Source of the DNA: a virus
Taxonomy: Duplodnaviria > Heunggongvirae > Uroviricota > Caudoviricetes
DNA: 40,270 nt
IMG/VR virus record: IMGVR_UViG_2740892440_000005
Coordinates: 1-40,270 of that record
Reading direction: 5' to 3' (one strand)
Below, one piece after another: positions 2,365 to 6,261 of the stretch (within the stretch, counting starts at the first letter, position 1; every line of letters starts with the position of its first letter). Made by a program: the position numbers and the translations under genes. The notes below the pieces were generated by a model. That model made no database searches, was not told the origin of the DNA, and worked only from the letters and a program-made list of their open reading frames with translations.

Positions 2365-2850
2365 CTAACATGAAAACTCACCGTCACCGTCCTTTGTTGG
2401 AATGGTGTAACTATCTAATGGGCCACCATATGTCGGCACATTTCCCAATGTTGGATGCTCAATCCACATGAAAAATGCACGTCCGGTTATTGGGCAAATA
2501 TCTGGCCGCCATTGGTTACGAACAGCCTTGGTTTCGGATAATTCTTCAGCGTGTTGTTTTACTTCCTCAAGCTCAACACGCAGCTTCCCTACCGTTAGCG
2601 CAATATCCTCGTTCTCCTGGTCGCGGCGTTTGATGTATTGCTGGTTTCTTTCCCGTTCATCCAGAAGCGCCAGCACGGTTTCTGGTCCGGCCAGAAATTT
2701 GAAGGCGTTGAGCGCATCAATATCCACACCGTAATCTTTAAGTTCCTGTTCACTTAACAAATCATCATCAGCTGGCAACATTAACAGGCGTTCCATTGCC
2801 GGGATTGCACGTTCTGCCGCCTCACGCAGTGCCTGATAGTCAATTGTCAT
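2365..2850 (-). CDS. Ead/Ea22-like phage protein (161 aa)
   Basis: N-terminus MTIDYQALREAAERA... matches my recollection of the Ea22-like family; AAGGA RBS 9 nt upstream of chosen ATG. Confidence 0.55.
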   Translation of the reverse strand: MTIDYQALREAAERAIPAMERLLMLPADDDLLSEQELKDYGVDIDALNAFKFLAGPETVLALLDERERNQQYIKRRDQENEDIALTVGKLRVELEEVKQHAEELSETKAVRNQWRPDICPITGRAFFMWIEHPTLGNVPTYGGPLDSYTIPTKDGDGEFSC

Positions 2851-3490
2851 TCTCGCCATCCTTCACAGTTGTAATCACTACAGCCTTCAAAATCATATGG
2901 CTGTACTGCCAGGTGATTTTTCCGCAATGCGGACAATTCCAACGCACCTTCCCGCTTCGCGACTTCTTTCTTCTGTTCTGATCTTTCAACCAGTCAGGCA
3001 TGACCAAACCTGCGCCCTGAACCATTGTTCTGCGGTTAAAGTTATTGATATTGAACGTCCGGCGCTTTGCTGCATCAGCAATGGGAAATGGCAACCAAAC
3101 TATTCCTGGTTCGTTTTTGTTGGCGACGCTAAAGATGGTCGCTTTACTGAAGTCATCTGTTGGCAATCCACCGTGTTGAAGCCAGTAAACATCGTTGCCG
3201 TTCCAGCTACCTTTTTTGTAGGCCACATACGCAGTGCAATCTGACTCAATCAGGCTTTCTGTAGGGATGTACTGGCAATCAACGTGCCACACTGCCATTG
3301 CATCCACGCTATCAGCGCAAACAGGCTGATCGATATCTCGACCACAATTCCAGGCTTTTTGGGCTTCTTCCAGCGTGTAAACATGGGCGCGATCGATATC
3401 AGAACTGTAACCATTGCCATTATGGCAATGGAATGAAGCGTTATTGCCCACAGTTTCACGCGAGCACATCATGTAAAAACGGTTAGTCAC
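2840..3490 (-). CDS. Hypothetical protein, Cys/His-rich (216 aa), GTG start
   Basis: GTG start preceded by AAGGAGG; GTGA overlap with upstream gene; CPHCG motif near C-terminus. Confidence 0.55.
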   Translation of the reverse strand: MTNRFYMMCSRETVGNNASFHCHNGNGYSSDIDRAHVYTLEEAQKAWNCGRDIDQPVCADSVDAMAVWHVDCQYIPTESLIESDCTAYVAYKKGSWNGNDVYWLQHGGLPTDDFSKATIFSVANKNEPGIVWLPFPIADAAKRRTFNINNFNRRTMVQGAGLVMPDWLKDQNRRKKSRSGKVRWNCPHCGKITWQYSHMILKAVVITTVKDGENDN

Positions 3491-4170: not shown

Positions 4171-4464
4171 TCAGTCATTACTGATAGCGCCATAGCGTGA
4201 GCGGTAATTACGCAGGCGCGGGTCAATTTCAGGGAAGTGGGTATATGTGGCTTTGCGGAATGGTCGGATTGATGTCTGGTAAATTCGCTCGCGTTCTTCT
4301 TTCTCTGCAAGCCATATACAATGGCGAAATTCCTTTTCCTCTTTCGTTTCCTGCGGTAGCGACATTATCCGGTCGTAGTTTTTTCTGAATTTATCCAGCA
4401 CCTCCGATACGGAATTGCCGGAACAGCGGCGCGCGTCATCCGCACCATACAGAGGCGCTGGCAT
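4171..4464 (-). CDS. Hypothetical protein (97 aa)
   Basis: Track ORF; AGGAG RBS 6 nt upstream of ATG. Confidence 0.5.
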
Positions 4465-4480: not shown

Positions 4481-5029
4481 TTATTTAGCTAACTTTTTCC
4501 AGATCGCTGAAACGTATTTGGCTTGGTGAATGGCATCATCAAGCGCGTTGTGGCGAGTTCCTTTGAATGGCATATCTCGCTTAGGGTCGAATCCTATTAC
4601 CTTCCCAAGTTCGACGATTGTTCTTACGTCGCGGTCATTCCACCACTGCCACGGAACTGGCTGCCCTGTCAGCGAATAACTGTTTCGGAGAATAACGCAG
4701 TCAAATGATGCTCCATTCCCCCAAACCTGAACGAATTTGTGGTTAGCGTTCTTTATGATGAATTCAGATAACCATGAAAGAGCCGTTGAAAGCTCCTGAG
4801 TGTTGCTGGTTAGCGATTTTCTGGCTTCTTCACTCTGTTCCAGCCACCATAAAATCGTTGAAGCGTCAGGACGCGCCCGATATCGCATTGATGACTCAAG
4901 CGAGATATTTACCGAGAACTCTTCTCCTGTTTCTCCGGTATTCGGGTCAAAGAATACCGCCCCAATAGAAATAACTGGCGCGTATGGCCCGTTGCCCATT
5001 GTTTCAAGGTCAACCATCAAGTGATTCAT
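4481..5029 (-). CDS. DnaQ-like (DEDDh) 3'-5' exonuclease (182 aa)
   Basis: Motifs MVDLETMG (Exo I) and HNALDDA (Exo III) read in the translation; AAGGA RBS overlaps the ssb stop. Confidence 0.75.
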   Translation of the reverse strand: MNHLMVDLETMGNGPYAPVISIGAVFFDPNTGETGEEFSVNISLESSMRYRARPDASTILWWLEQSEEARKSLTSNTQELSTALSWLSEFIIKNANHKFVQVWGNGASFDCVILRNSYSLTGQPVPWQWWNDRDVRTIVELGKVIGFDPKRDMPFKGTRHNALDDAIHQAKYVSAIWKKLAK

Positions 5030-5037
5030 GTAAGTCC

Positions 5038-5553
5038 TTAAATTGCGTGAATAGCGTGACGAGGGAAGGGGAGAGTTACTGGTGCAAAGGGGGTATCGTC
5101 GTCAAAATCCATAGGTGGTTCGCTGTGATTTCCCTGCTGCTGAGGTTGCTGTCTTTGTTGCTGACCATTATTTCGCTGAGATGAAGACTGTTCATTGCCT
5201 CCTTGCTTGCCACCAAGCATTTGCATGGTTCCACCAACGCCCACGATGACTTCGGTAGTGAACCGATCCTGTCCGCTTTGATCCTGCCATTTTCTTGTCC
5301 GCAATTTGCCTTCAAGATAAACCTCAGAGCCTTTTCGCAGATATTCGCTGGCAATTTCTGCCAGTTTCCCGCTCATTACCACGCGGTGCCACTCCGTCTG
5401 CTCCTTTTGCTCTCCAGTTTTCTTATCACGCCATTGTTCTGACGTAGCAACGGTAAGGTTTGCAAATGCCGTTCCTGATGGTGAATATCTGATTTCTGGA
5501 TCATGCCCAAGGCGACCAATAATGATCACCTTATTTACGCCTCTGCTTGCCAT
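5038..5553 (-). CDS. ssb: Single-stranded DNA-binding protein with C-terminal extension (171 aa)
   Basis: N-terminus [16 protein letters not shown]...EQTEWHRVV and Gly/Gln-rich linker are classic SSB; the acidic tip MDFDDDTPF is followed by 15 more residues before TAA. Confidence 0.9.
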
Positions 5554-6261
5554 TTATGCCGCCTGTTTTAGTTCGTTAACTCTGATGTTCATTACCTGAA
5601 CGCATTTAGCCTGCGCCTCCTCGTTGCCAGCCATTAATTGCCAGTCACGCTGATAACGCTCGATGAGTTTTTTCTTGTCAGTTTCTGTCGCTGCATAATC
5701 GCTGAAGTCTTTCAGGATTTGTTCGCAGTCAACCGATGGAGATTTCTGGTTGGTATTTTCTGGTGATGGTTTGTTATCTGATGCCGGGATTGCCCATCCC
5801 GGCAGCGATGGAGGGAGCCAGTAGAATCCTGTTCCATCCTTGAGTTTTGCCCTGTGCCATCCCTGCTTTTTATCGAGAGATGTTTGTGCGAAACCTTCCT
5901 CAAGGTTATACAGATACCGACCGATTCCCCACTGAACGGCAGCACGCTTCATTGCACCGGAACGACCACCTTTGACGGCTTCTACCTGCGTGTTTTCAGC
6001 AGCATCCCATTTGGTTACCCATTCGGAATCAATCTTTATTGATATGCCGCATTCAACGCCGCCGTTGTTGGGAATATCGCGGTATTCATTGCGCCATCCT
6101 GCTTTGCCGCAAACATCGTCCAGGCGTTTCATGATTGCCCTGTTCGTGACATAAGCCAGCACCATAGCCCACACCTTTCCATCGCGTGTTTTACCGCTTT
6201 GCTGTATTCGCCATTCGATATCTTCAGGGCTGAATGGCTCATCGAATTTGTTCAAATCCAT
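5554..6261 (-). CDS. Rad52/Sak-type single-strand annealing protein (235 aa)
   Basis: Contains GIGRYLY-type core motif typical of Rad52-family phage annealing proteins; sits next to ssb and exonuclease. Confidence 0.7.
   Translation of the reverse strand: MDLNKFDEPFSPEDIEWRIQQSGKTRDGKVWAMVLAYVTNRAIMKRLDDVCGKAGWRNEYRDIPNNGGVECGISIKIDSEWVTKWDAAENTQVEAVKGGRSGAMKRAAVQWGIGRYLYNLEEGFAQTSLDKKQGWHRAKLKDGTGFYWLPPSLPGWAIPASDNKPSPENTNQKSPSVDCEQILKDFSDYAATETDKKKLIERYQRDWQLMAGNEEAQAKCVQVMNIRVNELKQAA

Follow-up and report, generated by a model that had tools for sequence, protein, structure and literature searches.

The acidic C-terminal tip of bacterial SSBs is the recruiting site for over a dozen proteins of replication, repair, and recombination, and its free terminal Phe is treated as essential for this. 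The known SSB-binding pockets read the free carboxylate and the side chain of this last residue, and the complexes with ExoI, RecQ, and PriA show the same kind of pocket for the tip as that of chi. The locus studied here lies in a stretch of 40,270 nucleotides of Caudoviricetes DNA (the window, by which we mean the whole stretch that was analyzed) and encodes an SSB that does not end at this Phe, as 15 further residues follow the canonical tip. Is this extension an accident of one phage genome, or is it a selected part of the protein, and what would a docking tip be kept for when its Phe is buried?

A bacterial-type SSB with an internal tip

In the window, ssb is part of a tightly packed minus-strand module in which the genes follow one another in the order Rad52/Erf-like annealing protein, ssb, exonuclease, and abc2:

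5554..6261, minus strand: Rad52/Erf-like single-strand annealing protein gene (Pfam PF04098, PHROG 1097), whose stop abuts the start of ssb
5038..5553, minus strand: ssb gene, 171 codons plus TAA, encoding an OB fold, a disordered Gln/Gly-rich linker, an acidic tip, and a 15-residue tail
5086..5112, minus strand: acidic tip MDFDDDTPF (residues 148 to 156, M148-F156), internal here and aligning to MDFDDDIPF-COOH of E. coli SSB
5041..5085, minus strand: 15-residue tail, or cap (A157-I171), first codon GCA, then 14 sense codons; kept in relatives
5035..5040, minus strand: overlap of the ssb TAA (5040-5038) with the Shine-Dalgarno-like AAGGA (5039-5035) of the exonuclease gene
4481..5029, minus strand: Rv2179c-like 3'-5' exonuclease gene (Pfam PF16473, E = 2.9e-73), ATG at 5029-5027
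4171..4464, minus strand: abc2 anti-RecBCD gene (PHROG 656, E = 7.7e-55), last gene of the module

Residues 6 to 105 of the window SSB match Pfam PF00436 (E = 3.7e-38; 130.2 bits against a cut-off of 26), the protein is assigned to PHROG 44, and its best PDB match is E. coli SSB 1eqq over residues 1 to 140 (E = 9.5e-66); the PDB relatives listed for it were all deposited simply as SSB. W41, W55, H56, and W89, i.e., conserved Trp residues and the His of the tetramer interface (WHR motif), are invariant or nearly so in a 32-sequence alignment. By fold, key residues, linker, and tip, this is a bacterial-type SSB, except that the tip Phe is not terminal. A preliminary description of the locus had recognized a phage SSB with an internal canonical tip and 15 extra residues, and the ORF (5553..5038) and its PF00436 match bear this out.

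The tip runs from the Met codon at 5112-5110 to the Phe codon (TTT) at 5088-5086, and the codon that follows is GCA, which confirms, as had also been pointed out, that the extension does not begin with a point-mutated stop. The span originally given for the feature, 5038-5110, cuts into the Met codon by two bases, a discrepancy of no consequence. The extension had further been said to cover the ribosome-binding site of the downstream gene; this holds only in part, since the exonuclease gene's AAGGA reaches into the ssb stop codon and occupies the three bases past it but stays clear of the extension's sense codons. We also considered programmed frameshifting or read-through and rejected it, as no stop to be read through stands directly past the Phe codon and we saw no classical slippery heptamer at CCC TTT GCA.

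An AlphaFold2 model computed from the 32-sequence alignment has a mean pLDDT of 54.9, with the linker below 40 and the tail at about 50; within this low-confidence model, a weak strand is placed at residues 166 to 170. The tip carries a rare residue, Thr154 (DDDTPF; codon ACC at 5092-5094), at a position occupied by Ile in nearly all relatives. The exact window protein corresponds to KZO67604.1 from E. coli and is known from two contigs only; its sister alleles, found on hundreds of contigs, have Ile in the tip (DDDIPF), followed by the identical tail. Another rare allele has a DDDITF tip and resembles ssb-113, the classic Pro-to-Ser change. Outside the tip, residue 61 (5371-5373) is Ser both in the window SSB and in the family consensus; it is the equivalent of Phe60 of E. 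coli SSB, an aromatic DNA-stacking position.

Conservation of the tail and selection on its peptide

The tail is not a peculiarity of the window phage but marks a common allele class. The preliminary description had proposed an alignment with other prophage SSBs, and in such a comparison the extension is conserved: it is carried by about 115 of the 120 SSB cluster representatives that best match the window protein. These come from Escherichia, Klebsiella, Salmonella, Citrobacter, Enterobacter, and Phytobacter, with the consensus PPMDFDDD[IV]PF-[AS]P[VIL]TLPFPRH[ATV][IV][HY][AV][IL]. In these tail-bearing representatives the tip remains strongly conserved although it is internal. The 32-sequence alignment gives no consensus for the linker, and its tip and tail columns are invariant or nearly so.

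At the DNA level, a survey of 5,426 complete genomes of E. coli found the tail in 408, and phages mEp235, mEpX2, epsilon34, g341c, HK75, ECP1, and HZ41 match the window through the tail. The annotated SSB of mEp235 includes it, as confirmed by translation; for epsilon34, the gene appears in the genome paper with no remark on it. Scanning viral contigs for the codons of PVTLPFPRH yielded at least 120 loci, and proportions taken from the 120 listed are rough; among these matches, the tail codons are fused to an SSB in 85 of 120. Two matches, in contigs L087 and L116, lie in an AT-rich unrelated context and were rejected as chance.

The probability that 15 codons lack a stop by chance is about 0.5, so that an open run of this length is not improbable in itself, and the case against chance is made by the conservation of the tail across genera. 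Among the matches listed by the viral-contig scan, in which the peptide was fixed, third-position variants occur at seven of the nine core tail codons. We therefore consider a second scan, of contigs from one genome per species, in which only DDDIPF plus Ala-Pro was fixed. Its listed matches include 16 different tails of 15 codons each, found in Proteus, Xenorhabdus, Trabulsiella, Tatumella, Lelliottia, Atlantibacter, Enterobacter, Kluyvera, Colwellia, and others, with the motif A-P-[IVM]-[GT]-L-[PQ]-[FY]-P-x-H-x-I-[HY]-x-[IL] and with pS = 0.71 versus pN = 0.33. The preliminary description had allowed for a common neutral variant; the tail is indeed common, but with synonymous sites near saturation while the motif persists, it is not neutral. 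Since the variation falls on the third positions of the ssb frame, the constraint is on the ssb reading frame. Judged by these substitution patterns, the 15-residue tail is a conserved, selected peptide feature of many prophage SSBs. It is read in frame with ssb, and it is a part of the SSB, not of the downstream gene.

These data bear directly on the simplest explanations of the extension, namely, that it is neutral read-through, a linker for recombination at the DNA level, or an artifact of sequencing or assembly. A linker shared in module exchange would account for the near identity of the tail DNA among E. coli phages whose ssb bodies are only 85 to 91% identical, and it would show mosaic boundaries at both tail ends, as observed. 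Across genera, however, the DNA diverges and the peptide is kept, which speaks against the linker as well as against neutral read-through. As to error, we saw no sign of the indel or misread base 3' of the Phe codon against which the preliminary description had cautioned; the exact protein has been recorded independently, and the allele is present in hundreds of genomes. From these comparisons, explanations of this group appear largely refuted, and we give them very little credence.

Mosaic boundaries and an HNH endonuclease cassette at the tip/tail junction

Overall, the window resembles E. coli P22-like and lambdoid phages, e.g., HZ41, IME10, and CUS-3, and the surroundings of ssb are mosaic. 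Between ssb and abc2, the exonuclease gene may be present or absent; among the viral matches listed, a tail-bearing ssb is followed by the exonuclease gene in 38 and directly by abc2 in 47. Two alternative downstream sequences start immediately past the ssb TAA, and both E. coli genome and phage matches end there; on the right-hand side, the ssb module has its mosaic boundary at this stop codon. The homology of the window with phages S135 and ES18 ends instead at the Phe codon.

Other rearrangements were seen around the same site. In Salmonella phage S135 (L003), a different endonuclease ORF (2742-3239; 166 aa, HNH_3-like by eye) sits between a tail-less ssb and abc2, and the 5' end of abc2 also differs; the ssb/abc2 junction looks like an insertion hot spot. 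Two viral contigs, L080 (~3440-3470) and L108 (~1300-1330), have unrelated DNA in place of ssb; the break falls within the last tip codons or immediately ahead of them, and what is left of the locus is the tail with the downstream gene, as a short orphan ORF. In a Rheinheimera MAG (L158, 5191-6726), the 3' end of ssb and a downstream gene for a 129-aa lipoprotein-like protein are duplicated in tandem (~548 bp), which leaves a second, orphan tip-plus-tail copy; an endonuclease insertion as the source of the two copies was considered and rejected.

In Sf6 and Bas106, the Phe codon is followed directly by a 444-bp block and this, in turn, directly by the Ala codon:

2680-3123 of Sf6 (L001) and about 2180-2625 of Bas106 (L004): cassette; absent from the window, where the corresponding point lies between 5086 and 5085
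5085..5086, minus strand: tip/tail junction, with the cassette-free allele in the window; elsewhere the cassette insertion point and a mosaic or rearrangement joint
5086..5182, minus strand: last ~100 bp of ssb, a dense patch of differences between the window and Bas106 in pairwise comparison

The cassette comprises a TAG stop, a spacer containing GGAG (ribosome-binding), and 144 endonuclease codons without a stop of their own. The SSBs of Sf6 and Bas106 have the canonical end ...MNFDDSDIPF-TAG, and the 159-codon ORF that follows has its last 14 residues encoded by the same DNA as the window tail, a coincidence on which the Sf6 annotators remarked without explaining it. The ORF belongs to PHROG 2340, a family that includes I-KsaII of Staphylococcus phage K. 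Both the PHROG 2340 profile and the homologues examined end short of the tail, for example with ...WHLNNDPVY-stop in Pectobacterium phage DU_PP_IV and with ...WHAENGEGKNAL-stop in Vibrio phage D288. This argues that the endonuclease ORF took the tail from ssb, not the reverse, and rules out the tail as the native C terminus of the endonuclease.

One could still suppose that the tail is what remained of an endonuclease C terminus after deletion of the endonuclease, with no role in the SSB. The shared end of the Sf6 and Bas106 ORFs would fit, and so would allele P0101, in which the cassette-linked tip MNFDDSDIPF is fused directly to the tail. Against this stand, besides the earlier ends of the homologous endonucleases and of the family profile, the presence, on SSBs from distant genera, of tails that belong to this motif family and the purifying selection on the tail in the SSB frame. 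Moreover, the cassette is present in 24 of 120 viral tail loci among the matches listed and in 98 of the 408 tail-bearing E. coli genomes, so that three quarters of these loci are cassette-free. A remnant without function is therefore hardly credible. The tail occurs, furthermore, in genera in which we saw no cassette, such as Proteus, Xenorhabdus, Tatumella, and Colwellia.

Among the matches listed, all 20 cassette loci with a readable upstream SSB end have a tip of the form ...FDDSDIPF, with an extra Ser. Comparison of the window with Bas106 revealed 0 differences over 645 bp on the tail side and at least 16 in the last ~100 bp of ssb. The cassette thus shows the features of an element at a homing site, i.e., presence or absence at one exact position together with linked substitutions in the flank. 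The closest non-enterobacterial homologue of the endonuclease, that of Vibrio phage D288, likewise lies directly after an ssb gene. Taken together, these observations suggest an endonuclease lineage that targets the conserved tip-coding sequence, by putative homing. The annotation under the match in the listed E. coli genomes with the cassette names "ssb" alone, and the endonuclease ORF seems often to go unannotated.

The ssb tip of D288 itself is interrupted (L247, ~490-520): it has the sequence GACGAC CGGTCTTAG GACATCCCGTTCTAA and reads ...FDDDRS-stop, then in frame DIPF-stop. A 52.9% match identical to that of D288 is listed for ten sibling phages. This interruption could be a target-site change or an error.

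For the SSB, the consequence of the cassette is plain. Its stop codon frees the canonical tip and moves the tail to the endonuclease ORF; the cap is accessory, not essential. Since the cassette-bearing phages Sf6 and Bas106 are viable with an SSB that has no cap, they can do without it, at least under laboratory conditions.

Extensions after the tip in other lineages

The matches listed by the species-level scan also include short, lineage-specific extensions whose sequences differ from the enterobacterial tail. In Pseudomonas we found APLHHLAGA and relatives as well as APISRLLLNII, in Rhizobiales APEWR and APEVR, in Psychrobacter APHFDGQF, in Paenalcaligenes APLLARCEYVI, and in marine Gammaproteobacteria APIGLQYPALLxxM. 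Within such groups pN/pS is 0.20 to 0.44 in four and 0.76 in the small Psychrobacter group, the groups having been defined by motif, which pushes these ratios downwards. The loci that we inspected are prophage-like, lying near genes for RecT, an AAA_24 (Sak4-like) ATPase, ERF plus a lambda-type integrase, or an RNase_T-type exonuclease.

How frequent capping is was estimated from two samples in which the sequence past the tip was left free. Among 150 SSB representatives at 50% identity, 67 stop at the tip and about 12 have a short extension. A fresh retrieval of 112 viral FDDDIPF loci contained, among the matches listed, 84 that stop at the tip and 27 that are extended by up to 30 residues, in addition to at least 8 tail-bearing viral loci that were listed again. 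Among the matches listed, therefore, roughly a quarter of viral FDDDIPF-tipped SSBs are capped. Ala-Pro opens 14 of the 27 viral extensions listed, and Ala opens 19. Neither in the window, where the first codon is GCA, nor in these is the extension a simple stop-codon loss, since no stop codon can turn into an Ala codon by a single mutation.

Such proteins may be grouped as capped-tip prophage SSBs, with an extension of 4 to 16 residues immediately past the tip, usually starting with Ala-Pro, that is conserved within a host lineage and encoded in a prophage recombination module; the window SSB belongs to this proposed group. This leads to a broad proposal: capped tips would form a widespread class of mobile-element SSBs in which the tip is hidden from the host interactome or unmasked on demand by cleavage at the Phe/Ala junction and the lineage-specific cap serves as a second docking peptide, with an HNH endonuclease homing into the junction, uncapping the SSB, and taking the cap. 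We put this forward tentatively, as a somewhat doubtful possibility.

What a capped tip may do

An indirect indication of what burying the Phe may entail comes from a laboratory mutant. An engineered E. coli SSB with one additional C-terminal Gly does not bind chi with an affinity that could be measured (Naue et al. 2011, PMC3045619), and it complements poorly, replacing wild-type SSB only under slow growth (PMC3045619). In the accompanying model, K124 and R128 of chi close on the carboxylate and the ring of the last Phe (PMC3045619). With a pocket that reads carboxylate and Phe, and with a single Gly abolishing chi binding, the cap should block the usual docking at the tip. The suggestion of the preliminary description that an internal tip could change partner binding agrees, by analogy, with this published loss of chi binding.

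Considering these data, we propose the following model. While intact, the cap would stop the phage SSB from docking to chi, and probably to ExoI, RecQ, and PriA. Single-stranded DNA under the phage SSB would be shielded from nucleases and helicases of the host and reserved for the annealing protein of the phage. The conserved hydrophobic and basic residues of the tail would probably act as a second docking peptide; the conservation of its distal residues argues for a specific partner. As a whole, i.e., a genuine selected cap that blocks docking of host partners, shields ssDNA, and provides a second docking peptide, this is the reading that we favor, if by a modest degree.

The model has to account for the tip itself. 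A tip that was merely switched off should decay, and its retention points to a sequence that is still used, that is cleaved free, or that makes contacts within the SSB; together with the tolerance of an uncapped SSB, it implies that the tip must still matter. The internal tip may thus be bound by a partner that needs no carboxylate, may be engaged in contacts within the SSB, or may be exposed by cleavage at the Phe/Ala junction.

Cleavage would make the window protein a precursor, a protease removing the tail between Phe156 and Ala157 to free the canonical ...PF-COOH, whereby the hub would be switched on posttranslationally. The extension always starts exactly past the canonical last residue, and lineages whose tails otherwise differ have the opening residue or two (Ala, in many cases Ala-Pro) in common, as would be expected of a cleavage site; it is this cross-lineage conservation that makes cleavage a serious rival. 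The conservation of the tip and the tolerance of the uncapped SSB in cassette-bearing phages are also what it would lead one to expect. On the other hand, no protease is encoded nearby, we know of no protease that removes such a tail, and residues distant from the junction are kept within each lineage as well, although a leaving group needs none of them. We consider this explanation quite unlikely.

Alternatively, the tail may chiefly be a positive docking motif, for the beta clamp or a cognate annealing protein, or a ClpX-type degradation tag, with masking of the tip incidental. The P-[IV]-x-L-x-[FY] of the tail resembles the QLxLxL clamp-binding hexamer, and its end, ...RHAIHAI, can be likened to the ClpX-type tag of MuA, ...RRKKAI. 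The hydrophobic and basic pattern is kept, the last residue is hydrophobic, and three sequence variants of the endonuclease ORF all keep the tail in frame, which would suit a portable element. The resemblances are, however, putative ones at the level of consensus motifs, and the APLHHLAGA and APEWR tails fit neither of the two.

With respect to annealing proteins, Sak4 of HK620 needs the tip of its cognate SSB (PMC5928155), and in Pseudomonas the type of tail tracks the annealing-protein family: the APIS type occurs with RecT in six of seven loci, and the APLHHLAGA type occurs with AAA_24 in six. Such an association could reflect cognate pairing or mere linkage. The enterobacterial tail, in contrast, spans three annealing-protein families (Rad52-like, AAA_24, and ERF), and related phages with the same Erf gene lack the tail (S135). 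A tail that is chiefly a docking motif or a degradation tag therefore seems unlikely to us, though it retains some weight, and we continue to prefer the model in which a selected cap blocks the tip and docks elsewhere.

Relation to known systems

Searches of full text by tail strings and by topic found no description of natural post-tip extensions of SSBs, although subscription journals could hold one. What appears to be new is the recognition of capped tips as a conserved class and of an endonuclease that splits them; the allele itself is common, and it is known under the annotation "ssb."

If our proposal is correct, a large natural class of SSBs with a buried Phe would mean that mobile elements tune or evade the SSB hub. 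That roughly a quarter of phage EcoSSB-like proteins, among the matches listed, bury the docking Phe is likely to surprise specialists. Phage annealing proteins depend on SSB tips, which makes the caps relevant to recombineering, and phage SSBs are common triggers of defense systems, which makes them relevant to phage-host conflict. For annotation, pipelines label capped proteins as plain "ssb," and matches that contain the cassette are listed without its endonuclease ORF. Capped and uncapped alleles in near-identical phages, such as those of the window and Bas106, offer ready natural experiments.

The closest structural comparison is the chromosomal SSB of E. coli (PDB 1eqq, 4mz9), which has the same OB fold, a disordered Gln/Gly/Pro linker, and a tip, PPMDFDDD(I/T)PF, that is identical apart from Thr154 of the window. 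The chromosomal protein ends at Phe, whereas the window SSB adds 15 conserved residues. The engineered SSB plus Gly (PMC3045619) likewise has its carboxylate moved off the Phe by sequence past the terminal residue, but it is a laboratory mutant with one glycine, while the window tail is natural, 15 residues long, and conserved. Gene 27 and gene 26 of Sf6 and their equivalents in Bas106 contain the same ssb module and the same tail DNA as the window; Bas106 is 98.4% identical to this region, yet its cassette parts the tip from the tail. The SSB of HK620, which works with Sak4, also belongs to a temperate-phage recombination module, and its C-terminal motif is used by the cognate annealing protein (PMC5928155); it is, however, a distant homologue, and its tip, NDYPPF, is at a free C terminus, unlike that of the window SSB. 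Finally, the Sf6 gp26-type endonuclease is homologous to the free-standing HNH homing endonucleases (I-KsaII, Staphylococcus phage K; ~35% identity) and has the signs of mobility seen in homing endonucleases, presence or absence plus linked flank substitutions. Unlike the I-KsaII family, it has no stop of its own and reads into the ssb tail, which in the window, where the endonuclease is absent, is joined directly to the tip.
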